NCBI GenBank assembly: GCA_002418865.1
Contig: DIEY01000072.1
Coordinates: 51,881-115,880 of the forward strand
Direction of reading: 5' to 3'
Source of the DNA: Bacteroidales bacterium UBA5762
GTDB lineage: Bacteria; Bacteroidota; Bacteroidia; Bacteroidales; TTA-H9
Length of the DNA: 64,000 nt
The notes beneath the pieces were generated by a model. It was not told the origin of the DNA and ran no database searches. It saw only the letters and a list, made by a program, of their open reading frames with translations. This document shows, piece by piece, positions 39,642-52,087 of the stretch. The position numbers were made by a program, and so were the translations under genes. Position 1 is the first letter of the stretch; the number at the start of each line of letters is the position of its first letter.

Positions 39642-42600
39642 TTACTTGAAGGCTTTTTCAGGCAAACCATCGCCCTGAATGCTTAAACGAGGAAAATATT
39701 CAGGTACTGATCTTCCCATAAGCTTATCAACATACATTTTAGCGAGATATTGACCCAACATAAAGCCTTGTCCACGAAGTCCTACAAATAATCCTAAATC
39801 GGGATCTATAATCATGCGAGGTTCAACATAATAACCTGCCCAAACAGCTTGAAAACCAACCGAAGATAATTCAGGCAACCAATCCACAAATACCTCCGAA
39901 ACGATTTCAAGAAATTCTTTTGTGTTGATTTTCAGATTTTTAGATGTTTCCGCGGGATCTACAGCAGGAGAAGCACATCCAATTACTTGTCCAGTTTCGG
40001 CAAGCTGTTGTCCATAAACTGCAACAAAACCCTTATATTTTCTTCTATCAATCAACATAGGAAGCGGAATATTGTCAACTCCCAGCATTGGCATACGACG
40101 TGTAATAAATGCCTGATGACGAACAGGATACAGGCCTGTCTCTATACCAAGACGACGGGCAAATTGTCCTGCTTCAGGTCCCAAGGCATTGATGAAGATT
40201 TCTGTGCTGTATTCAATGTATTGTTTGGTATGATCTTGCACCAAAACTTGAAATTCATTTCCATTCTTTTTTACATCTATCAATTTACAATCTTCCAAAA
40301 TTGTACCTCCATGCTGAATTCCAATTTGACGGATTAAATCGATGGTTTTGCCCGGAGTAGCTTGCCAACAATTATAAGTAATCTGAGCCGCTATATAGGT
40401 TTTTAAACTTGGATTGAAAAATGGGGAAATACGTTTTGTAAAATCCTTCGGACTGATCATTTCGGCTTTGCTCCATGCCATAGCAGCTTCTAAGGCCTTA
40501 TACATATCTTCATCATGCGCAAAATTTACGTATTGAATGGGATGATAATCAATGTTGCGTAATTGTTGTAATTCAATAAAAATCTGACGATTATGTTCCG
40601 CAATATCCGAAAGCTCAGGAACGCTGAAATTGGGTCGGCCTCCTGCGATATTTCTCCATGAAGAACCACGGCCAAAATTAACCAAAACAGGTTTCTTACT
40701 GGCTTCGGATAAATATCTAAAAAGAGCACTACCACCTATCCCTCCACCAGCTATGATGGCTTCGACCTTGATTTTTTTAATAGGCTTGTTGACGATATAG
40801 TTCTCCTGCACAGGCCTAGGATATAACTCACCCAGTACAAGCTGATTCGACATTGGCCCTCGAGGTGTGGCTTCGCCAACAATCTGAATTCCATAATCCT
40901 TTATTTTACTCTTTAATCGAGGTATGCAACGCTTGCCACGACATGCTCCCATCCCTAAACGAGTAGTATGTTTTATTTCATCAATGGAAATAAATTTCCT
41001 TTCACCTACCACTTCTAATATTTCCTCCATTTTTACGTCATCACAATGACAAATATAACTTTCAGCAGGGACTTGTTCATCATAAGGTTGAAGTTCGAAT
41101 GGTTCGGGATAATTTTCCTTTACTATAAAACTACGCACTTGAGTAAGATCTTCTCCATGCAAGCTAAATGACTTTACACGAGCAATATGGGTTTTATTGG
41201 GTTTTCGAAGAATTTTATCGATCACTCCTTCCCCTAAAACTTTCCCATTATTGTCAACAAGAAAAACCTCTGCATTCTCTTTTACTTCATATTCAATGGG
41301 TAAAAATACCCAGTCGCGTTTTAGATTGTAGCCAAAAATAGCCAAGCCCGGACATTGATACACACAGTCCATACAGCCAATACATTTATTGAAATCGATG
41401 GAAGGCACTGTACTGGTGGAGGATTTGGTTATGGCACCATGAGGACATGAAAAAGCACAAGGATTACAGGCGAATCCATAAAGACAATCGATTAAAACGA
41501 ATCCTTTTGCTTCCATTCGTTCGCGTTCAGGACGGTAAGGCTGATCGATAATTTTTATAGGATGTTGTTGCGAATCGATATATTCTTTCGAAAGTGAGAG
41601 ATATTCATCATAATTCAAGCGTATTCCCATATCCATCAAAATTTCGTAGGCAACCTGCTTTCCCCTCAAAACCGCGCTCGTACCTTCTCCTATACGAATG
41701 GCATCGCCGGCTCCATAACATTTTCGCCCAAAAATTTCATTGCCTTTAATTAGCAATTGATCATCCGAAACCAATCCCGTACAAATATTGATAGCATCGA
41801 TACCTTCTACCACGGTTTCCGTTCCCGGAATAGGATGGAAATTTTCGCAACGCGCTATTACAGCGCCTATAATTCCCGTTGAATCAGAATTGGGAATGGC
41901 TTTAAGAAGTATATGTGAAGTCAAAATAGGGATTCCTAACCTTCTTACTCTATTAGCCTGCACAGGAAACCCCCCTTCGAAAGGCTGAGCTTCCAAAATA
42001 GCCTTTACCCTTGCACCTGCTTGCATCAGCTGGTATGAAGTCAAATATCCTATATTGCCGGCTCCAACCGTTAAAACATTTTTACCCAAAAGGGTAAACT
42101 GCATATTCATCATTTTTTGAACCACAGCAGCCGTGTATACTCCCGGCAAATCATCATTTTCAAAGGTTGGCATAAAGGGTACGGCTCCAGTAGCTACAAC
42201 CAAATATTCTGTATCAATATAATAGATTCTATCGGTTGAAATTTCCTTAACTGCAATCCGCCCTCCCTCCAGAATATCCCATACCGTCGAATTCAGAAAT
42301 ATTCCTTCATGATTAGCTCCCGCAAGGGTTTGGGCAATATCGAAACCACGCATCCCTCCATATTTCTTTTCCTTCTCGAAAAAGAAAAACTGATGAGTTT
42401 GCATTAGAAATTGCCCACCTATCTTACTATTATTATCCACCACCAAATTATCTATTCCATATTCACGCAAAATCTCTCTGGCAGCTAAACCTGCTGGGCC
42501 TGCACCAATAATAACCACTTGTGTTTTATAAACATCAATGGGTTCATTCTTTGCATATTCTATAATATCAGGCCTATAATCATGCGGAATTTCCTTCACT

Positions 42601-42866
42601 TCCTTTACTTCATCCACCAGAGTAATACAAATACGCTTCACCTGGCCATCCACCAACATCTCACATGCACCGCATTTGCCTATACCACACTCCAAACTTC
42701 GCTTACGATTGCGTAAACTATGGCTGTGTACTGGAAATCCGGCCTGATGCAAGGCAGCTGCAATGGTAAAACCTTTTTCGGCTTCGATGATGTGCTCATC
42801 AAACTGAAAAGTTACCTTTTCAGCCTTGGGAATCTCAAGAATGGGATGAGTAGTAATTTTATACAT
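39642..42866 (-). CDS. Multidomain Fe-S flavoprotein: [2Fe-2S] + FAD/NAD oxidoreductase + 2x[4Fe-4S] + BFD-like [2Fe-2S] + DAO-family FAD dehydrogenase
   Basis: CGIGKCGAC..C; GAGPAG and GAGNIG; CLYGFACNPCAFSC and CIGCMDCVYQC; ICHC..GMGACRGKRC; AGGGIGG, PVRHQ, WAGYY, GQGFML. Confidence 0.88.
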   Translation of the reverse strand: MYKITTHPILEIPKAEKVTFQFDEHIIEAEKGFTIAAALHQAGFPVHSHSLRNRKRSLECGIGKCGACEMLVDGQVKRICITLVDEVKEVKEIPHDYRPDIIEYAKNEPIDVYKTQVVIIGAGPAGLAAREILREYGIDNLVVDNNSKIGGQFLMQTHQFFFFEKEKKYGGMRGFDIAQTLAGANHEGIFLNSTVWDILEGGRIAVKEISTDRIYYIDTEYLVVATGAVPFMPTFENDDLPGVYTAAVVQKMMNMQFTLLGKNVLTVGAGNIGYLTSYQLMQAGARVKAILEAQPFEGGFPVQANRVRRLGIPILTSHILLKAIPNSDSTGIIGAVIARCENFHPIPGTETVVEGIDAINICTGLVSDDQLLIKGNEIFGRKCYGAGDAIRIGEGTSAVLRGKQVAYEILMDMGIRLNYDEYLSLSKEYIDSQQHPIKIIDQPYRPERERMEAKGFVLIDCLYGFACNPCAFSCPHGAITKSSTSTVPSIDFNKCIGCMDCVYQCPGLAIFGYNLKRDWVFLPIEYEVKENAEVFLVDNNGKVLGEGVIDKILRKPNKTHIARVKSFSLHGEDLTQVRSFIVKENYPEPFELQPYDEQVPAESYICHCDDVKMEEILEVVGERKFISIDEIKHTTRLGMGACRGKRCIPRLKSKIKDYGIQIVGEATPRGPMSNQLVLGELYPRPVQENYIVNKPIKKIKVEAIIAGGGIGGSALFRYLSEASKKPVLVNFGRGSSWRNIAGGRPNFSVPELSDIAEHNRQIFIELQQLRNIDYHPIQYVNFAHDEDMYKALEAAMAWSKAEMISPKDFTKRISPFFNPSLKTYIAAQITYNCWQATPGKTIDLIRQIGIQHGGTILEDCKLIDVKKNGNEFQVLVQDHTKQYIEYSTEIFINALGPEAGQFARRLGIETGLYPVRHQAFITRRMPMLGVDNIPLPMLIDRRKYKGFVAVYGQQLAETGQVIGCASPAVDPAETSKNLKINTKEFLEIVSEVFVDWLPELSSVGFQAVWAGYYVEPRMIIDPDLGLFVGLRGQGFMLGQYLAKMYVDKLMGRSVPEYFPRLSIQGDGLPEKAFK

Positions 42867-42899
42867 AATATTTCTTTCCTTTATGTTAATGCAAAAACA

Positions 42900-42917
42900 T
42901 TGTGAATTATTTCACAG
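42900..42917. promoter_or_regulatory. Rex-like (or CRP/FNR-like) operator TTGTGAA-TTAT-TTCACAG
   Basis: 13/14 defined positions match TTGTGAA-N4-TTCACAA; abuts the -7 box CAAAATTA (42918-42925) of the Fe-S flavoprotein gene. Confidence 0.7.
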
Positions 42918-43098
42918 CAAAATTACTGGGATTATCTTTTATGATTGAATCTTATCTTTAAAAAGTTCCTATTCATAATTATTTCAAATAATAATTCAAA
43001 AAATTGATTTATATTGAATTTCGATAATTCACTACTTGGATATAAAACATTAGAGTCGAAAAAATTAAAAATAACCATAATAGATTTAAACCTCTTCT

Positions 43099-43106
43099 TA
43101 ACTTTG
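43099..43106 (+). promoter_or_regulatory. -7 box TAACTTTG for proline dehydrogenase
   Basis: Consensus match 34 nt upstream of the ATG. Confidence 0.65.
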
Positions 43107-43140
43107 AATTGTTATAAAGCAAAATATAAATACGAATTCC

Positions 43141-44310
43141 ATGTCACTAGATTTCAACGATACTTCAATAGCCTATGCTCGAATGAGTGATACAGATTTG
43201 AAAAAAGCCCAGTTTCTCTTTCGGCTCATTTCATCTCCAAAATTGGTAAATGCAGGCAAACAGCTTTTGAATGGACTTTTAAGAATTCATTTCCCTGTTG
43301 ATTGGGCCATCAAACCAACCGTTTATCATCAGTTTGTTGGTGGAGAAGAGCTTGAGCATTGTAGCCAGATTATAAACTTGTTAAGCCAATACAACGTTAA
43401 ATCCATATTAGACTATTCGGTCGAAGCCATCCAAGATGATGATGCCATAAATAAAGTATTAAACGAAACTCTTCGTTCTATTCGTTTTGCTGCAAAAAAT
43501 CCCGATATTCCTTTTGCCGTGTTTAAACCATCGGCTTTCATTCAACCTCAGATTCTCGACAAAATAGAACATCCCGAAACATTATCCCAGGATGAGCATG
43601 CACAGATTGAACAGTTTAAAAACAGAATCGATATACTTTGTCACGAATCGGCTTCACTTGGGCAACCCATCCTCATAGATGCCGAACATACTTGGTATCA
43701 AGGATTAATTGATGAGATTGCGGAAGAAATGATGTTACAATACAATAAAGAACACACTATTGTATATAATACTTTGCAAATGTATCGCATCGACAGAATT
43801 TCATTTCTTCAACAACAAATTCAAAAAGCCCATGAAAACGGATATTTACTTGGGTTAAAGTTTGTGAGGGGGGCTTATATGGAAAAAGAAAGAGACAGAG
43901 CTCGAAAGTATGGTTATGCATCACCTATACACCCTGATAAAGCCTCTACCGATAGAGCCTTTAATGAAGCACTGAAAATCTCCATAGAAAATATGGATGT
44001 GACTTCTATATTTTGTGGCACACATAACGAAGAAAGCTGCCTTTACCTAACACAACTTATGCAGGAAAGAGACATAAATAAGAATAATAACAACATTTGG
44101 TTTTCACAGTTATATGGCATGAGTGACCATATCAGTTTCAATCTTGCCATGAATGGCTATAATGTTGCTAAATACATACCTTATGGTCCTGTTAAAAATG
44201 TAATGCCTTATCTAATTCGTAGAGCTGAAGAAAACACTTCGGTTGCCGGGCAAACAAGCCGTGAGCTTCGACTCCTTCAAAAAGAAATCGAAAGAAGAAA
44301 ACTAAGATAA
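43141..44310 (+). CDS. Monofunctional proline dehydrogenase (PutB/PRODH)
   Basis: LIDAE, YNTLQMYR, KFVRGAYMEKE, GTHN, QLYGMSD, KYIPYGP, PYLIRRAEEN. Confidence 0.93.
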   Translation: MSLDFNDTSIAYARMSDTDLKKAQFLFRLISSPKLVNAGKQLLNGLLRIHFPVDWAIKPTVYHQFVGGEELEHCSQIINLLSQYNVKSILDYSVEAIQDDDAINKVLNETLRSIRFAAKNPDIPFAVFKPSAFIQPQILDKIEHPETLSQDEHAQIEQFKNRIDILCHESASLGQPILIDAEHTWYQGLIDEIAEEMMLQYNKEHTIVYNTLQMYRIDRISFLQQQIQKAHENGYLLGLKFVRGAYMEKERDRARKYGYASPIHPDKASTDRAFNEALKISIENMDVTSIFCGTHNEESCLYLTQLMQERDINKNNNNIWFSQLYGMSDHISFNLAMNGYNVAKYIPYGPVKNVMPYLIRRAEENTSVAGQTSRELRLLQKEIERRKLR

Positions 44311-44382
44311 TGAGGTAACCTTCTTTAGTAGAATCGGCCGCAGATTATCTGCCTCCACTTTTTGATTAAATATTGATAATTA

Positions 44383-44961
44383 TCATTTTTGAAGCCGGCC
44401 TAATTTCTCAACTTTGTCGAGCCAATGCTGCCTTGTTTTTTCATCAGATAGCTTAACCTTACTAAAGGTAGTCTTTTTTACAGGTCGAATCCCACAAAAT
44501 TCCAATAGTGCCCTTTTTATAGAATTATGTCCAGGACTTTTGTATATTATCGAATAATACCACTTTGGTGAATCCATAGTAACAATAAGGCGAGCCGATT
44601 TCCCAGTCAACAGTTTATCCCACCTCAATGAATTTTCATGGTATTTAAAACTAAATCCAGGAAGAAAAATTCTGTCGATAAATCCTTTGAAAAGAGCAGG
44701 ATAAGTTCCCCACCAGGTAGGGTAAACGAACACTAAATGGTCTGAGTCTATGATGCTTTGCTGAATGCTGATGAGATCGGGTTCTAATTCCATTCGTTTT
44801 CTATAACCATATTGCAAAATAGGATTAAAATGCAAATCAATAAGATGGATTAGCTTACAATTAGCACCAGTGGCTTCAGCTCCTCTTTTGTAACTTTGAG
44901 CCAAACCGCTGCATAGGCTTTCCTTATCAGGATGCCCATTCAAAATGAGAATATTTTTCAT
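44383..44961 (-). CDS. Flavodoxin-like fold NAD(P)H:quinone oxidoreductase (Flavodoxin_2 family); start 44961
   Basis: ILILNGHP, VFVYPTWWGTYPALFKGFIDR, LLTGKSARLIVT, LLEFCG. Confidence 0.88.
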   Translation of the reverse strand: MKNILILNGHPDKESLCSGLAQSYKRGAEATGANCKLIHLIDLHFNPILQYGYRKRMELEPDLISIQQSIIDSDHLVFVYPTWWGTYPALFKGFIDRIFLPGFSFKYHENSLRWDKLLTGKSARLIVTMDSPKWYYSIIYKSPGHNSIKRALLEFCGIRPVKKTTFSKVKLSDEKTRQHWLDKVEKLGRLQK

Positions 44962-45199
44962 AGTAACTTTACATATTGCATTCAAACTGCAATCAATAAG
45001 CTATCAAATTCTTATTTTTCCCCATTAATTATATCGTATAAACCACCATGACTTGAATAATTAGGATTAGTGGAGTATAAAACACTTCTTGAGGAATTTC
45101 AAAAACAAATGCAGCTTATTTTTTAAGGATAGATGGTTTTGCATAAGAACCAAGGGGATAGCGAAGGCAACAAATTCATTTCAAATATGCTACTAAGGA

Positions 45200-46582
45200 T
45201 CAATGCTCAACCTTTTCGAGTTCAACCGTAAAATGACGCATAATAGGAGCTTCCCATGAAATTCGATATCCATGTTGGATATTCAAACGACGGTCCCAAA
45301 TATTTTTGATTGCAACGGCCACGACGTCCATGTGATTATTAGTGTAAACTCTTCTAGGAATAGCCAATCGAACCGTTTCGAGAGCCGGATAACGGTCCTC
45401 ACGTGTAATAGGATCTCTGTCGGCTAATAAAGTTCCAATTTCTACGGCACGGATTCCGGCTTCAAGGTAGATTTCGATAGCAAGTGTTTGAGCCACATAT
45501 TCTTTACGCGGAACATTAGGCAGAAACTTCAGTGCATCCACAAAAACTGCATGTCCGCCAACAGGTTGTTGTATAGGAATTCCAAAATCGGTGAGTCGTT
45601 TCCCGAGATATTCTACTTGACGTATACGTGTCTCTAAATATTCGAAAGTAGTACTCTCGCGCAGACCTTCTGCCATTGCATTCATATCTCGTCCCGCCAT
45701 GCCTCCATAAGTAATATATCCTTCGAACATGATGTTGAAAGTAGTGGCTTGCCTAAAAATTTCTTCAGAACGAAATCCTATGAATCCACCAATGTTGACA
45801 ATTCCATCTTTTTTACCACTCATAGTAGATAAATCGGCATAAGAATACATTTCGGTAACAATTTCTCGAATCGATTTTTCTTTATATTCTGGCTCACGTA
45901 GTTTGATGAAATAAGCATTTTCTGCAAAACGAGCCGAATCGTAACAAACGGGAATGCCATATTTATTAGCTAAAGCTTTTACTTCACGCAGATTCTGCAT
46001 CGAAACAGGTTGTCCCCCTGAAGTGTTGCAAGTAATAGTCATCAAAATAAAAGGAATATTCTCTTTTGGATTGGATTTTAGCACATCTTCGAGTTTCTGC
46101 AAATCCACATTCCCTTTGAAAGGATGAGAAATACTGGTATCGAAAGCTTCATTTATGCTACAGTCAATAGCTACTGCATGTCGAAACTCAATATGACCTT
46201 TAGTAGTATCGAAAGGCGAATTGCCCGGGATAACGTCACCAGGTTTAACCAGGGCCGAAAATAAAACGTTCTCTGCAGCGCGCCCTTGATGTGTTGGCAG
46301 AAAATATGGGAAACCAAATATTTCATAAATGGCCTGTTTCAGCTTGTAATATGAAGTTGCTCCGGCATAACTTTCATCGCCAAGCATCAGCTCACTCCAC
46401 TGACGGTCACTCATGGCTCCTGTACCAGAATCAGTGATTAAATCAATATACACTTGCTCGCTTTTGAGATTGAATAAATTGTATCTGGCTTGTTTTATCC
46501 ATTCCTCCCTTTGAACCCGCGAGCTCCGATAGATGGGCTCTACCATCTTTATCCGGTAATATTCAGCAAATGGTAATTCCAT
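45200..46582 (-). CDS. tnaA: Tryptophanase (beta-eliminating lyase)
   Basis: IDLITDSGT, PTHQGRAAE, FDTT, SGKKD PLP lysine; C-terminal RHFT has His (tyrosine phenol-lyase has RFFT). Confidence 0.9.
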   Translation of the reverse strand: MELPFAEYYRIKMVEPIYRSSRVQREEWIKQARYNLFNLKSEQVYIDLITDSGTGAMSDRQWSELMLGDESYAGATSYYKLKQAIYEIFGFPYFLPTHQGRAAENVLFSALVKPGDVIPGNSPFDTTKGHIEFRHAVAIDCSINEAFDTSISHPFKGNVDLQKLEDVLKSNPKENIPFILMTITCNTSGGQPVSMQNLREVKALANKYGIPVCYDSARFAENAYFIKLREPEYKEKSIREIVTEMYSYADLSTMSGKKDGIVNIGGFIGFRSEEIFRQATTFNIMFEGYITYGGMAGRDMNAMAEGLRESTTFEYLETRIRQVEYLGKRLTDFGIPIQQPVGGHAVFVDALKFLPNVPRKEYVAQTLAIEIYLEAGIRAVEIGTLLADRDPITREDRYPALETVRLAIPRRVYTNNHMDVVAVAIKNIWDRRLNIQHGYRISWEAPIMRHFTVELEKVEH

Positions 46583-46674
46583 AAAATTAAATTTTAATGA
46601 TGAATTATATTCAATAAGATAGGGATTGAAAATCTATAGAAGTAAGGGGAGGGCAAATTATCTGCCCTAATTAA

Positions 46675-46755
46675 CTAAAGCGAGTAATCGTCGCGGCGCT
46701 TTATATGGCAATATCTGCAAAGTGCTAATAATGAAATCAGCTCAAACCACATCAT
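46675..46755 (-). CDS. Candidate tnaA leader peptide MMWFELISLLALCRYCHIKRRDDYSL (26 aa)
   Basis: Complete ATG..TAG ORF in the tnaA 5' region, one Trp codon, followed by a hairpin; not in the ORF track because of its length. Confidence 0.45.
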   Translation of the reverse strand: MMWFELISLLALCRYCHIKRRDDYSL

Positions 46756-46861
46756 TCAAATTTTCTGTGTAAAATTAAAAGAATTTATATTTTACAGCGC
46801 AAAATTCGAAAAAGAAAATTTTATAACCAACATTCATTTATTTTTCTTATAATTCCCTCTA

Positions 46862-46881
46862 TTTGTTAAATAATTAACAAA
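46862..46881. promoter_or_regulatory. Rex-like operator TTTGTTAA-ATAA-TTAACAAA
   Basis: Perfect 8-bp arms with a 4-nt spacer, overlapping the -33/spacer region of the promoter whose -7 box TACCTTTG is at 46889-46896. Confidence 0.65.
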
Positions 46882-46966
46882 AGCTCATTACCTTTGCTTT
46901 CGGCGGTATTGATCAACCTACTAAATATAGAATATTATAGATTAACATTTTACATTTTTCAAAATA

Positions 46967-48262
46967 ATGCATTCGCGATTTTATAAGATCCTGCCATTTT
47001 TCTTTTTTTTGTTGAGTAGTTTACTATATCCCAATGTCATTTCTGCTCAGTTTGACTCTCTTTTCCTCAATAAGACTCTCCGTTTCGACTATATTCACAT
47101 GGGTGATGCCAATAGTGAATTTTTTGCCATGGATGAATTTCTCGAAGAACCCTATTGGGCAGGCTCACACCTCAACCTAATCGATACCTTAGGTTATGGC
47201 AAATTTCAGTATCGAGTTTATGATCTATCTACTGGTCGTTTGATCTATTCGAGAGGTTATTCTACCTTGTTCTCTGAATGGCAAACTACCCTTGAAGCAC
47301 AAGATGTTTTCAGAGCATTCGAAGAATCCATTGTCATGCCTTTCCCACGTCATGACATCCTCATCGAAATATACAGCTACAATAAAAAGGGGCAATTCGA
47401 AAAAAAAATTTCTTATCCTTTTCGCGTCAACAATTATTTTGTCAATCGAAAGCAGAGAATGGTTTTCCCTGTCATAGAGGTTAGAGAAGTTGCTCCCACA
47501 GAAAAAGCCCTCGATATTGTGATTTTGCCCGAGGGATATACTTCTCAGCAGATGGAAATTTTCAAGCAAGACTGTCAGAAATTTGCGGAAATACTCATAG
47601 GATACGCTCCATACAACGAATACAGCGATAAGATCAACATCAGAGCGGTTTTAGCTCCTTCTCAAGAAGAAGGAAGTGATTTTCCAGCTACCGGTATTTG
47701 GAAAAATACTCTGCTACATTCAAAATTCTATACCTTCGATCTGGATCGTTACTGCATGACCGAAGCCTTTCAAACGGTAAGAGATGTTGCTGCTAATGCC
47801 CCTTACGACCAGATTTATATTCTGGTCAATTCCTCCAGTTACGGCGGTGGTGCAATCTTCAATTATTATGCTCTTTCGGTGAATAGCAACATGTTGGCTG
47901 GAAAAGTCTTTATCCATGAGTTTGGGCATAGTTTTGCCGGATTAGCCGATGAATATTATGATTCTCAGGTGGCTTACAATGAATTTTATCCTTTAGACGT
48001 AGAGCCTCAGGAACCGAATATCACTACTTTAGTAAAGTTCGATAGAAAATGGGCTGATATGGTAGAAGAAGGCGTTCCCATCCCTACCCCAGCCGAAGAA
48101 GATTACAGAAATAAAATTGGAGTTTTCGAAGGAGGTGGCTATGCTGCCAAAGGCATTTATCGCCCAGCCATGGATTGCCTGATGAATACTTTTCATCAGA
48201 ACACCTTTTGCCCGGTTTGCATACGTGCTATCCGACAAATGCTCAATTTTTATACTCAATGA
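46967..48262 (+). CDS. M64 family metallopeptidase (IgA peptidase-like), secreted
   Basis: Signal VISA|Q, KTLRFDY, DIVILPEGYT, HEFGHSFAGLADEY, EGGGY, YRPAMDCLM, FCPVC. Confidence 0.92.
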   Translation: MHSRFYKILPFFFFLLSSLLYPNVISAQFDSLFLNKTLRFDYIHMGDANSEFFAMDEFLEEPYWAGSHLNLIDTLGYGKFQYRVYDLSTGRLIYSRGYSTLFSEWQTTLEAQDVFRAFEESIVMPFPRHDILIEIYSYNKKGQFEKKISYPFRVNNYFVNRKQRMVFPVIEVREVAPTEKALDIVILPEGYTSQQMEIFKQDCQKFAEILIGYAPYNEYSDKINIRAVLAPSQEEGSDFPATGIWKNTLLHSKFYTFDLDRYCMTEAFQTVRDVAANAPYDQIYILVNSSSYGGGAIFNYYALSVNSNMLAGKVFIHEFGHSFAGLADEYYDSQVAYNEFYPLDVEPQEPNITTLVKFDRKWADMVEEGVPIPTPAEEDYRNKIGVFEGGGYAAKGIYRPAMDCLMNTFHQNTFCPVCIRAIRQMLNFYTQ

Positions 48263-48289
48263 ACCATATTAATAATTTTAAATACGACC

Positions 48290-49192
48290 ATGATTACTCA
48301 TTTAGAACAAATGATCGAAGCTGCAAAGGCTAAAGCCCGTAAAAGAATCGTTGTGGCTTACGCCAACGACATCCATTCCATAGAAGCCGTACACCATACT
48401 ATGGAATTAGGAATTGTAGATGCTACGCTTGTAGGTGACAAAGCTACTATTGTAAAGGTTTGTGAGGATTTGAATATTCAATCCCAGAAATTTCGTATTG
48501 TTCACGAGTCGGATGAGCAAAAAGCAGCTCACAAAGCCGTTGAACTGATCATAAAGGGTGAAGGTGATATTCTGATGAAAGGCCTTGTGAGCTCCGATAA
48601 ATATATGAGAGCCATTCTCAATAAAGATGCAGGTTTATTGCCCCCAAAGGCCATCTTGAGTCATGTAACGGTAATTGAAAACCCAAATTACGACAAACTA
48701 CTAATAGTTGGTGATGTAGCCATTATACCTTCTCCAGACTTAGACCAGAAGATCGCCATCACGAATTACCTGATACAAACCGCTCATCGGCTGGGAAATG
48801 AAAAGCCTAAAGTGGCGATTATTGCCGCAACCGAACAAATGTTACCGAATATGCCCGCATGTGTTGATGCAGCCATCATTTCAAAAATGGGTGAACGCGG
48901 ACAGATTAAAGGAGCCATTATTGACGGCCCTCTTGGACTTGATTCAGCTATCGACAAAGAGAGTGCCACTATAAAAAAAGTAAAGAGTGAAGTGGCCGGT
49001 GATGCCGATTGTCTGCTTTTCCCCAACATCGAAACGGGTAATGTTTTTTATAAATTCAATACTAAACTCGCCAAAGGTGAATTGGGAGCAATCGTTATAG
49101 GAGCCAAATGCCCAGCTATCCTCACCTCAAGAGGCGATAGCGCTCTCTCAAAAACATATTCCATTGCTTTGGCTGCCCTTTCAGCCGACTAA
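48290..49192 (+). CDS. ptb: Phosphate acyl/butyryltransferase, copy 1
   Basis: ILMKG, LSHV, IDGPLGLDSAI, LLFPNIETGNVFYK, LTSRGDS. Confidence 0.9.
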   Translation: MITHLEQMIEAAKAKARKRIVVAYANDIHSIEAVHHTMELGIVDATLVGDKATIVKVCEDLNIQSQKFRIVHESDEQKAAHKAVELIIKGEGDILMKGLVSSDKYMRAILNKDAGLLPPKAILSHVTVIENPNYDKLLIVGDVAIIPSPDLDQKIAITNYLIQTAHRLGNEKPKVAIIAATEQMLPNMPACVDAAIISKMGERGQIKGAIIDGPLGLDSAIDKESATIKKVKSEVAGDADCLLFPNIETGNVFYKFNTKLAKGELGAIVIGAKCPAILTSRGDSALSKTYSIALAALSAD

Positions 49193-49221
49193 TAACAAAC
49201 CACCCTTTAACCTTTTGCTCT

Positions 49222-50133
49222 ATGATCACTAATTTTACACAATTAGTGGATAAAGTAAAAACAGTAACTCCTCAAACCATTGCTGTGGTTGCTGCCGAAG
49301 ATCATGCCACCCTTGGAGCTATTCATCGCGCTATTTCTACGGGTTTCGCAAAGGCTATCCTCTTTGGCAATCAATTAATTATTGAATCTTTGCTTGCTCA
49401 TTATGAAATTCCTGATCATTCCTATACAATTATTCATCAACCCAATGAACAAATAGCGGTAAGTGAAGCCGTTACTATGGTTAATCAAGGTAAAGCTGAT
49501 ATTTTGATGAAAGGCATTATTGGCACTGATATTTTTTTGAAAGCAGTGCTGGATAAAACATCAGGACTATTAAATCAAGGTGAAGTAATGACTTATGTAG
49601 CTGCTATGCAAATACCTACTTATCATAAATTACTCTTCATTTCCGATACGGCGGTCATCCCTTATCCTGACCTCAATCAAAAAGTTGCCATGTTGAAGTA
49701 TTCAGTTGAGATGGCTAAAAGATTTGGCATTTCTAAACCTAAAGTTGCTTTCATTGGAGCCTCTGAAAAAGCTGGGAATCAATCACAAACAGCAATTGAT
49801 GCCAGTATTATAAGCAAAATGGCTCAACGTGGACAACTTGGGGAAGTTATTGTAGATGGCCCACTCGATATTTTTCTGGCTACCCAACCCGAAAGTCTGA
49901 GTATTAAACGAATTAATACCCCCATCGAGGGAGACGCCGATATTTTAATCTTTCCTTCTCTTGAAAGTTGTAATGCCTTTTATAAAGGTTTAGTGAGATT
50001 TGCTGGGGCAGAATTGGCGGGCTTAATACAAGGTACTCGCAAACCTGTAGTTCTGATGTCGAGAAGTGAAAGTGAAAATTCAAAATTTTATTGTCTGGCT
50101 CTCGCATGCCTTATGTCGAATAAAAACCTCTAG
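49222..50133 (+). CDS. ptb: Phosphate acyl/butyryltransferase, copy 2 (divergent)
   Basis: ILMKG, VDGPLDIF, LIFPSLESCNAFYK, LMSRSES. Confidence 0.85.
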   Translation: MITNFTQLVDKVKTVTPQTIAVVAAEDHATLGAIHRAISTGFAKAILFGNQLIIESLLAHYEIPDHSYTIIHQPNEQIAVSEAVTMVNQGKADILMKGIIGTDIFLKAVLDKTSGLLNQGEVMTYVAAMQIPTYHKLLFISDTAVIPYPDLNQKVAMLKYSVEMAKRFGISKPKVAFIGASEKAGNQSQTAIDASIISKMAQRGQLGEVIVDGPLDIFLATQPESLSIKRINTPIEGDADILIFPSLESCNAFYKGLVRFAGAELAGLIQGTRKPVVLMSRSESENSKFYCLALACLMSNKNL

Positions 50134-50137
50134 TATA

Positions 50138-51214
50138 ATGAACAATGAACGTATTCTTGCCATCAATCCAGGCTCAACTTCGACCAAAATAGCCGTATAT
50201 GAAGGAAACAAAAACATCTTTCTGAAAACCATACGTCACACGCCTGAACAATTGCAATGCTGTCGGAAAATTACCGATCAATTTTCTTTTAGAAAAGAAA
50301 TCATTTTGAAAGAATTGAAAGCTGCTGGGATAGATCTAAACAGTATAAAAGTGGTAGTTGGGCGTGGAGGTCTGGTAAAACCTATCCCCAGCGGAGTATA
50401 TGAAGTTAACGCCCGTTTGATAGAAGATTTGAAGGCAGGAGTAATGGGTGAACATGCCAGCAATTTAGGTGGACTTATAGCCGATGAAATTGCTCGATCC
50501 TTAAACAATGCCAAAGCCTATATAGCCGATCCGGTTGTAGTAGATGAATTACAGGATGTTGCACGAATTGCAGGGCATCCTCTCTTCAAAAGATTGTCTA
50601 TTTTTCATGCCTTGAACCAAAAAGCTATAGCTCGATTATATGCTCGATCGCAAAACAAGAATTACGAAGACCTTAACCTTGTGATAGCGCACTTAGGAGG
50701 TGGCATATCAGTTGGAGCTCATCAAAAAGGGAAGGTTATTGATGTAAATAATGCTTTAGATGGAGAAGGGCCTTTTTCCCCTGAACGTAGCGGGACTTTA
50801 CCTGCAGGACAATTGGCAACTTTGTGTTTTAGTGGGCAATATACACTTGAAGAAGTAAAAAAGATGATTACGGGCAATGGTGGGTATATGGCCTATCTGA
50901 ATACCAATAATGCTTATGAAGTTGAAATGGCGGCACGCGAAGGCGATCAAAAGGCTAGTCTTATTCAAGACGCATTGGCTTATCAAGTTGCTAAGGAAAT
51001 TGGAGCTATGGCCACCGTTTTAAAAGGGAATGTCGATGCTATTATTCTTACAGGAGGAATAGCCCACAATACTTACGTGGTTAACTATATCAAAGAAATG
51101 ACAAGCTTTATAGCACCTATTATAGTTTATCCAGGAGAAGACGAAATGAGTGCTTTGGCCATGAATGGACTAATGGTTCTTAGAGGCGAAGGCAAGGTGG
51201 GTATTTATGAATAA
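50138..51214 (+). CDS. buk: Butyrate (branched-chain carboxylate) kinase; start 50138
   Basis: ILAINPGSTSTK, VGRGG, EHASNLG, DPVVVDE, HALNQKA, HLGGGISV, GPFSPER, LTGGIA, YPGEDEM. Confidence 0.96.
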   Translation: MNNERILAINPGSTSTKIAVYEGNKNIFLKTIRHTPEQLQCCRKITDQFSFRKEIILKELKAAGIDLNSIKVVVGRGGLVKPIPSGVYEVNARLIEDLKAGVMGEHASNLGGLIADEIARSLNNAKAYIADPVVVDELQDVARIAGHPLFKRLSIFHALNQKAIARLYARSQNKNYEDLNLVIAHLGGGISVGAHQKGKVIDVNNALDGEGPFSPERSGTLPAGQLATLCFSGQYTLEEVKKMITGNGGYMAYLNTNNAYEVEMAAREGDQKASLIQDALAYQVAKEIGAMATVLKGNVDAIILTGGIAHNTYVVNYIKEMTSFIAPIIVYPGEDEMSALAMNGLMVLRGEGKVGIYE

Positions 51215-51358: not shown

Positions 51359-52087
51359 ATCATTCATACACGGGCAATTCTGCTGCATTATATTCATTAT
51401 AGCGATCACAGCATCATTGCAAAGTTATATACTCGAGAGAGTGGCTTAAAGTCGTTCATGGTCAAAGGTATGAGCAGAAAGAATTCTATATTGAAACCTT
51501 CTCAGCTTCAGCCATTGACCCTTCTCGAAATCATATATGAAGAAAAACCACATCGCCAACTTTACTTCTTAAAAGAAGCAAGAAATTATTTTCTGAGCTA
51601 TAAAGCCCAAAATAATGTGATTATATCAGGAATTATCCTTTTTATAACCGAAGTGCTCAATCATAGCATAAAGGAAGAAGAAGCCAATCCCCAGCTTTTC
51701 GATTTTATAGAAAAAATCATCATTAAGCTCGAAACAATAGAAGAGAATATAGCTTTTTTACCTATCTGGTTTCTTATCAGATTGTCGAGTTTTTTAGGGA
51801 TTACCCCTTTAAATAATTACACTTCGGAAACTATTACTTTCAACATGGAGGAAGGAAAGTTCCAGGAAAGTTTCCCAGAACGAAATGTTTATATTACTGG
51901 TGAGAATGTCGAAATTCTCTCACTTCTCATCAAAGCATTTAGCGCCTCCGACTATTTTGTACCTAACATTCAAATTAGTGACAAATCTGTCATAATAGAT
52001 ATTCTACTTCAATATTATCATCAACATTTACCTGGTTTTTCAGAGATTCATACTCATAAAATCTTGAAAGAAATACTATATTCTTGA
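51359..52087 (+). CDS. recO: DNA repair protein RecO; N-terminus extends 33 codons above the first ATG (51458)
   Basis: xIHTRAILLH...YSDHSIIAKLYTRESG..SFMVKG OB-fold start, QPLTLLEI, FLIRLSSFLGITP, FNMEEGKF; -7 box at 51316-51323. Confidence 0.88.
   Translation: MIHTRAILLHYIHYSDHSIIAKLYTRESGLKSFMVKGMSRKNSILKPSQLQPLTLLEIIYEEKPHRQLYFLKEARNYFLSYKAQNNVIISGIILFITEVLNHSIKEEEANPQLFDFIEKIIIKLETIEENIAFLPIWFLIRLSSFLGITPLNNYTSETITFNMEEGKFQESFPERNVYITGENVEILSLLIKAFSASDYFVPNIQISDKSVIIDILLQYYHQHLPGFSEIHTHKILKEILYS

Follow-up and report, generated by a model that had tools for sequence, protein, structure and literature searches.

Rex control of ptb-buk and a TTGTTAA-type operator are already known from clostridia, where TTGTTAANNNNTTAACAA is cited as the Rex consensus and ptb-buk is a reported target (PMC5367854). 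The Rex regulons of clostridia and other Firmicutes, with boxes of the form TTGTTAANNNNTTAACAA or TTGTGAANNNNTTCACAA and with ldh, adhE, hydA and ptb-buk among their targets, use an 18-bp palindrome, and both variants of that same palindrome occur in the DNA analysed here, a window of 64,000 nucleotides from Bacteroidales bacterium UBA5762 (contig DIEY01000072.1, positions 51,881 to 115,880), within a locus of 11.6 kb at 39642-51214 that holds 8 genes in 5 apparent transcription units of alternating orientation. A first-pass annotation had read this locus as a redox-gated island coupling proteolysis, amino acid catabolism and substrate-level phosphorylation, and all the genes that it listed are indeed present where it placed them. 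On balance, however, we consider it probable that the locus is a lineage-specific neighbourhood of five separately transcribed amino acid catabolism units, two of which belong to a genome-wide Rex regulon, rather than a single mobile or unitary island. Framed as an island the locus is ordinary, and the noteworthy portion is its regulatory parts: candidate Bacteroidales Rex targets can now be listed, comprising nqr, gdh, the ptb-ptb-buk operon headed by a peptidase, and a 1074-aa flavoenzyme of wide occurrence (here FUS), and true modules, namely the divergent pairs of tnaA with M64-ptb-buk and of PRODH with FUS, as well as an order-wide tnaA leader, are set apart from chance neighbours. FUS and the tnaA leader peptide are the more novel pieces. 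Bacteroidales that ferment protein rank among the main sources of indole and of branched and short-chain fatty acids in digesters, sediments and guts; their way of keeping redox balance in the absence of Stickland reductases is little understood.

The case for Rex starts from two palindromes. The operator pattern used was the 18-bp palindrome TTGT[GT]AA-N4-TT[CA]ACAA, scanned across the genome as TTGTKAANNNNTTMACAA with at most one mismatch. Promoter elements were assigned by eye as consensus matches to TAnnTTTG, the Bacteroides promoter consensus, Bacteroidota not using the sigma-70 consensus; a generic promoter and terminator scan gave counts not above shuffled expectation. The operators and the two transcription units that they precede are, in window coordinates:

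42900..42917, unstranded: Rex-like operator 1, TTGTGAATTATTTCACAG, differing at one position from the canonical Rex box and lying 34-51 nt before the FUS ATG
42918..42925, minus strand: -7-like promoter element of FUS, TAATTTTG, a consensus match with a putative role
39642..42866, minus strand: FUS, 1074 aa, a single-chain gamma-alpha-ferredoxin-beta fusion of the type of HcnABC, opine dehydrogenase (OpnDH), D-HypDH and archaeal L-proline dehydrogenase (L-ProDH)
46863..46880, unstranded: Rex-like operator 2, TTGTTAAATAATTAACAA, a perfect clostridial-type box, 87 nt upstream of the M64 ATG
46889..46896, plus strand: -7-like element of the M64 operon, TACCTTTG, a consensus match with a putative role
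46967..48262, plus strand: M64 zinc metallopeptidase, M64_N (PF16217) and Peptidase_M64 (PF09471), HEFGH intact, first gene of the operon
48290..49192, plus strand: ptb1, phosphate acyl(butyryl)transferase paralogue, PF01515; TIGR02706 at 323.7 bits, below the cutoff of 410.5
49222..50133, plus strand: ptb2, phosphate acyltransferase paralogue; TIGR02706 at 273.6 bits, below the cutoff of 410.5
50147..51214, plus strand: buk, butyrate (short/branched acyl) kinase; TIGR02707 at 531.3 bits against a cutoff of 289.1

Operator 1 abuts the -7-like box of FUS and would cover the FUS start site, and operator 2 has a -33-like TTTG on one side and the -7-like box of the M64 operon on the other; FUS and M64-ptb1-ptb2-buk carry Rex-type operators in predicted repressor positions. 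The two Rex-like operators reported earlier are real palindromes that overlap the FUS and M64-operon promoter regions, and they are rare genome-wide: the whole 2.8-Mb genome contains 12 boxes with at most one mismatch, 10 of them intergenic, and two of these ten fall in the 11.6 kb. Other boxes precede nqrA (at C101:34719), gdh (glutamate dehydrogenase), a gene for an OadA-like carboxylase and an SDR gene. Rex itself is encoded in the genome, as a 209-aa protein matching PF06971 (G000:C97:15626) and the NCBIfam Rex model at 206.7 bits against a cutoff of 126, and we infer from sequence that it would bind these operators and respond to NADH.

The boxes recur in relatives, which are metagenome-assembled genomes of variable completeness (G000 denotes the 2.8-Mb source genome and G001 a same-genus genome, its closest relative). 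Of 78 FUS promoters from orthologous loci in other Bacteroidales, 32 have a box if up to two mismatches are allowed; about 1.5 would be expected at a background of 0.019 per 300 nt. These boxes lie mostly 46-80 nt from the ATG. In the same family, 5 of the 10 other genomes have boxes at the M64/ptb operon some 94-119 nt upstream, the counterparts of operator 2 standing before M64 in G004, G008 and G009 and before ptb1 in G011 and G002. Perfect or near-perfect boxes are found about 170-200 nt upstream of nqrA in several Rex-positive Bacteroidales families (L209-L238), so that nqr looks like a core member of the regulon. Rex is encoded in 41 of 61 relatives, and nqrA boxes occur in 14 of 24 Rex-positive genomes versus 1 of 6 Rex-negative ones. 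When FUS and nqrA promoters are combined, 19/43 carry a box in Rex-positive and 1/14 in Rex-negative genomes (Fisher p = 0.012), a value that is only indicative because the two promoter sets come from overlapping genomes.

These features invite comparison with the Firmicutes regulons, which likewise pair a Rex gene with operators at repressor positions and with ptb-buk and NADH-linked enzymes as targets, here candidate ones. Unlike them, the present set belongs to a Bacteroidales host, its operon opens with an exported M64 peptidase and contains two ptb paralogues, and nqr and a 1074-aa fused flavoenzyme are among the predicted targets. No paper on a Bacteroidales Rex regulon was found in the literature searched.

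Several observations weigh against Rex control of the two units. The M64-operon box has decayed in its right half-site in the closest relative G001, and no box was found at this operon in G003, G006, G007 or G010. The FUS box is missing in many Rex-positive genomes, and FUS boxes taken alone are not significantly associated with Rex (5/19 Rex-positive versus 0/8 Rex-negative, p = 0.28). Furthermore, the Ptb/Buk reactions are redox-neutral and the reason for their answering to NADH is not obvious; the promoter positions on which the repressor geometry depends are predictions from consensus matches; and operator 1 has a core identical to the CRP consensus TGTGA-N6-TCACA.

Within the peptidase-led unit, M64 starts with a type-I signal peptide (ending ...NVISA before QFD) and has no lipobox Cys, and is therefore taken to be exported, probably to the periplasm; of its earlier description as a secreted protease, export is supported by the signal peptide and an extracellular site is not. 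The ptb1 and ptb2 products are about 40% identical to each other, and both are assigned, as butyryltransferase-like proteins, at the level of the PTA_PTB family. The buk start at 50147 agrees with full-length alignments in relatives. With gaps of 27, 29 and 13 nt between them, M64, ptb1, ptb2 and buk are predicted to form one operon, and no description of a peptidase-led ptb-buk operon was found in the literature searched. In genus g2 (L170:811-3129, minus strand), an M1 peptidase with a C-terminal sorting domain of the type IX secretion system (T9SS) lies directly upstream of ptb1-ptb2-buk, with a Rex-like box, TTGTGAAATTAATAACAA, between peptidase and ptb1. This M1 gene in the position of M64 is suggestive of a non-orthologous replacement.

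Divergent from this operon lies the tryptophanase unit, which has a control element of its own:

45200..46582, minus strand: tnaA, tryptophanase, NCBIfam TnaA equivalog NF053783 at 836.1 bits against a cutoff of 750
46675..46755, minus strand: tnaA leader open reading frame (ORF), MMWFELISLLALCRYCHIKRRDDYSL, 26 codons, ending 92 nt before tnaA

The tnaA gene is found in 201 of 301 genomes of the order, and a counterpart of the leader ORF in 7/7 loci of the family. Across many families, 29 of 35 tnaA upstream regions encode a leader with the core [YF][LR]N[ILV]KxRDx[FY], its stop 52-165 nt before tnaA and with 0-6 residues following the core; the same-genus leader, with RYCRIKCRD, is a close variant that this pattern misses. 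Every synonymous codon is used for each of the invariant N, K, R and D residues, and selection therefore acts on the leader peptide and not on the DNA or RNA. The earlier label of a Trp leader captured a 26-codon ORF that is real and conserved order-wide, but Trp is present in some copies only, the conserved element being [YF][LR]NIKxRDx[FY]. In enterobacterial TnaC, residues W12-F13-N14-I15 contact the tunnel and L-Trp (PMC8429421). Like TnaC of tnaCAB, the Bacteroidales leader is a short ORF that closely precedes tnaA and whose conserved core is C-proximal, and its aromatic-hydrophobic-Asn-Ile segment resembles W12-F13-N14-I15; in contrast to TnaC, it has Lys at the D16 position, no conserved Trp and no terminal Pro. 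Two candidate assignments were rejected: a Trp-codon attenuator, because Trp is not conserved, and membership in the TnaC family (TIGR02616 type, W12-x3-D16-x7-P24), for the same reason and for want of a terminal Pro. A Rex-like box lies about 90 nt upstream of the -7-like element of tnaA, and control of tnaA is more plausibly assigned to its own leader peptide, separately from that box. No description of a Bacteroides tnaA leader was found in the literature searched.

Between tnaA and FUS stand two further units:

43099-43106, plus strand: -7-like box of PRODH, TAACTTTG, a consensus match about 180 nt from the Rex-like operator
43141..44310, plus strand: PRODH, monofunctional PutA-type proline dehydrogenase, PF01619, 252 bits
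44383..44985, minus strand: flavodoxin-fold NAD(P)H dehydrogenase (quinone)-like gene, PF02525 (Flavodoxin_2), 126 bits

The best-surviving alternative is adjacency without shared control, in which independent genes were juxtaposed by rearrangement and the common theme mirrors the abundance of amino acid genes in proteolytic Bacteroidales; the palindromes may still function, yet the region would constitute no system. We regard this as rather unlikely, although much of the gene order in relatives speaks for it, as do the five units of alternating orientation and a GC content like that of the remaining window. Around FUS (80 loci compared, at 70-91% identity and with 10-kb flanks), the recurrent context is glmS-DUF4270-GT5 divergent from FUS-yceD-rpmF-fabH, at about 30 of the 80 loci, with ptb-buk elsewhere. 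Genes for tnaA, M64, ptb and buk lie near FUS at 1 of the 79 other FUS loci (that of the same-genus genome, where tnaA, M64, two ptb genes, buk and recO intervene), and an intact PRODH likewise at 1/79. FUS and buk are on different contigs in 4 of the 6 genera of the family. A tblastn search found no homologue of the flavodoxin-fold reductase in any of the relatives' loci examined, and it recovered from G001 a PRODH remnant of 58 aa and 40% identity between tnaA and FUS (L001:9453-9611); the closest relative has lost a PRODH gene that the source genome kept.

Against mere adjacency stands the independent recurrence of the same genes in varied combinations. The block in which tnaA is divergent from M64-ptb1-ptb2-buk-recO-GT5 is found in 7 of 10 same-family genomes, from 5 genera, and tnaA with M64-ptb-buk recurs in at least three other families. 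Outside the family, G053 has tnaA divergent from M64-ptb-buk, G033 has M64-ptb-buk, and G070 has tnaA divergent from M64 with ptb1 about 1 kb downstream; in all, M64 adjoins ptb-buk and/or tnaA in the 7 of 10 family genomes and in G033, G053, G070, G225, G234 and G107. Among the top 30 loci anchored on tnaA (window included), M64 is divergent from tnaA in five from other families, with ptb1 adjoining in one. The pairing of tnaA with FUS recurs once outside the family, in G044. Divergent PRODH and FUS are found in G003, G004, G005 and G009, and across 4 genera of this family only, and in G008 PRODH is at a contig end beside the 5' start of FUS. The presence of a different secreted peptidase (M1) in the place of M64 before ptb1 in g2, and the placing of two of the genome's ten intergenic Rex-like boxes within 11.6 kb, likewise count against adjacency without shared control.

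Two sub-modules are therefore conserved, tnaA with M64-ptb-(ptb)-buk in the family and three other families, and PRODH with FUS in the family only, within a wider background where, in loci anchored on buk, ptb-buk is widespread and buk orthologues are present in most of the 61 relatives. The full eight-gene arrangement is private to the source genome, as relatives carry only differing subsets, and outside the family the genes are largely scattered, so that the description as an island does not hold. The proposal of a coordinated system fares better in part: the genes share a theme of amino acid catabolism and substrate-level phosphorylation, and two units have Rex-type operators, conserved in relatives, in a genome that encodes Rex; set against this are the five transcription units, the leader proper to tnaA, the -7-like box proper to PRODH and a reductase without operator.

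In Pfam, FUS matches Fer2_4, Pyr_redox_2, two [4Fe-4S] modules and a BFD-like 2Fe-2S domain, and it ends in a DAO domain. The best Protein Data Bank match of residues 14-269 is 1y56_A, the alpha subunit of Pyrococcus horikoshii L-ProDH (E 1.4e-13), and residues 700-1047 match 1y56_B, the beta subunit of the same enzyme (E 1.1e-6). Two [2Fe-2S] Cys motifs define the group of opine dehydrogenase, D-HypDH, HcnABC and archaeal L-ProDH (PMC4575208). By sequence reading, FUS has both, a gamma-type motif (C60-x4-C65-x2-C68-x11-C80) and an alpha-type motif (C606-x-C608...C642-x4-C647), along with ferredoxin Cys clusters C461/467/470/474 and C495/498/501/505, the motifs GAGPAG121, GAGNIG268 and GGGIGG707, and the DAO catalytic module. 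The predicted cofactors are 2 FAD, 2x[2Fe-2S] and 2x[4Fe-4S], with one NAD(P)H site. The earlier name of a Pdh-like fusion is right at the family level, given these motifs and the match to both 1y56 chains.

FUS thus shares with archaeal L-ProDH PDH1/PDH2 (1y56), D-HypDH, OdhABC and HcnABC the gamma motif Cys-x4-Cys-x2-Cys-x11-Cys, the alpha motif Cys-x-Cys...Cys-x4-Cys, two ADP-binding motifs and the DAO-type beta module. Whereas these enzymes are built of separate subunits, FUS has all modules in one chain and adds the 2x[4Fe-4S] ferredoxin insert; the spacer of its second 2Fe-2S motif is 33 residues versus 15-20 in the L-ProDH/OpnDH/D-HypDH/HcnABC family, and its identity to the structurally solved members is low. 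Orthologues 62-91% identical over all 1074 aa occur in many Bacteroidales families and in 29 of 61 relatives, and FUS is kept full-length as one ORF in every orthologue on complete contigs. Such conservation is unusually high for an uncharacterised enzyme, which databases name just 'FAD-dependent oxidoreductase'.

A bolder version of Rex control would see in one environmental Bacteroidales family an NADH-responsive programme for peptide fermentation, comprising the periplasmic peptidase, Ptb1/2, Buk, Nqr, Gdh and FUS, taken as an NAD(P)H-to-amine Fe-S flavoenzyme, as the NADH-reoxidising arm, which would replace in function the clostridial selenoprotein reductases while the regulon condenses into one locus; we think this improbable.

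The palindromes might also be operators of the CRP/FNR family, of which Bacteroidota carry numerous proteins, and the signal would then be oxygen, nitrosative stress, a cyclic nucleotide or another effector. The CRP core in operator 1 and the many Rex-positive genomes without boxes agree with such a binder. We nevertheless find it very doubtful, as TTGTTAA-N4-TTAACAA, the clostridial Rex consensus, makes up half of the conserved boxes and does not suit CRP, the flanking TT/AA positions are conserved, and nqr, gdh, ptb-buk and an NAD(P)H-linked flavoenzyme are targets of the kind that Rex typically controls. Because the boxes are nearly restricted to Rex-positive genomes (the 19/43 versus 1/14 promoters above, an indicative comparison), Rex is favoured over a CRP/FNR-type binder; operator 1 alone fits either.

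True Stickland-like coupling is just as hard to credit. Here FUS would be an NAD(P)H-driven imine/amine reductase that reoxidises the NADH of the Ptb/Buk branch, with all units co-induced on peptides. FUS does have a complete predicted wire, which leads from the NAD(P)H site by way of four Fe-S clusters to the FAD of DAO type, and its Rex-type operator is typical of NADH-consuming enzymes. No match to GrdB/PrdB (PF07355, B-subunit) was found in the source genome, an absence that would suit a substitute reductase and that is not proven, 14 control genomes being equally silent. However, the characterised relatives of FUS, namely L-ProDH, D-HypDH, opine dehydrogenase and HCN synthase, are all oxidative dehydrogenases (PMC4575208); FUS is missing in 32 of 61 relatives, which mostly keep ptb-buk; and tnaA, PRODH and the reductase give no sign of common control.

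For the oxidative arm the comparison with clostridia holds in part. Elsewhere the genome encodes a P5CDH (TIGR01236, 780 bits). It also has VorB, at 536 bits (cutoff 399), together with PFOR, a KorA-type enzyme and an IOR-alpha-like protein, and these four 2-oxoacid:ferredoxin oxidoreductases complete, with ptb1, ptb2 and buk, the gene set of an oxidative arm; they could supply Ptb/Buk with acyl-CoAs. A branch of this kind with Ptb/Buk at its end, as in the clostridial Stickland scheme, is plausible. Where clostridia use proline reductase, proline here would enter oxidation by PutA-type PRODH and P5CDH, and electron disposal more likely proceeds, unlike in clostridial Stickland fermentation, via Nqr and the quinone pool or by hydrogenase-type routes. 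The term 'Stickland-like' used in the first-pass annotation stays an analogy, since no reductive arm was identified.

Finally, a mobile or horizontally acquired island is contradicted by the ordinary GC of the locus (0.37-0.40, as in the remaining window), by housekeeping genes on both flanks (yceD-rpmF-fabH on one; recO-GT5-DUF4270-glmS, GT5 being glycogen-synthase-like, on the other) and by the differing gene subsets of relatives.

Returning to the favoured reading of a lineage-specific neighbourhood with two Rex-controlled units, we propose a model where rearrangement would have assembled the genes between the housekeeping blocks glmS-DUF4270-GT5 and yceD-rpmF-fabH. At low NADH/NAD+, Rex would occupy the 18-bp palindrome over the FUS start-site region or within the -33/-7 spacer of the M64 operon; on a rise in NADH it would leave both operators, together with those of nqr, gdh, the OadA-like carboxylase gene and the SDR gene. 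The M64 operon would then provide peptide trimming in the periplasm and, through Ptb/Buk, conversion of acyl-CoA to acyl-phosphate and on to ATP, the acyl-CoAs coming from VOR-, KOR- and IOR-type 2-oxoacid:ferredoxin oxidoreductases, and FUS would couple an amine/imine pair to NAD(P)(H). Independently of Rex, tnaA would be gated by its leader peptide, presumably a TnaC-like nascent-chain sensor, and PRODH, working with the P5CDH encoded elsewhere, and the flavodoxin-fold reductase would act separately, each under its own promoter.

The flavodoxin-fold reductase can be assigned at family level only, its match to an NCBIfam NAD(P)H oxidoreductase model being below cutoff, and its start is likely the ATG at 44961. 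No operator was found at this gene, and it looks like an accidental neighbour. In genus g4 (L168:1624-5913), the interval between tnaA and PRODH holds no flavodoxin-fold reductase and instead a 212-aa protein without a Pfam match, a sigma-54 enhancer-binding protein (606 aa) and an NtrC-like response regulator (449 aa). At the flanks, the recO ORF (51458-52087, plus strand), read from its first ATG, falls short of RecO_N by about 35 N-terminal residues; since the Pfam match sets in at profile position 36, the true start is probably upstream at a non-canonical codon. On the other side, the longest yceD ORF shares 29 nt (39642-39670) with the 3' end of FUS, which has the same orientation, and FUS may accordingly be co-transcribed with yceD-rpmF-fabH; the true start of yceD is uncertain, given that its Pfam match starts at residue 96.

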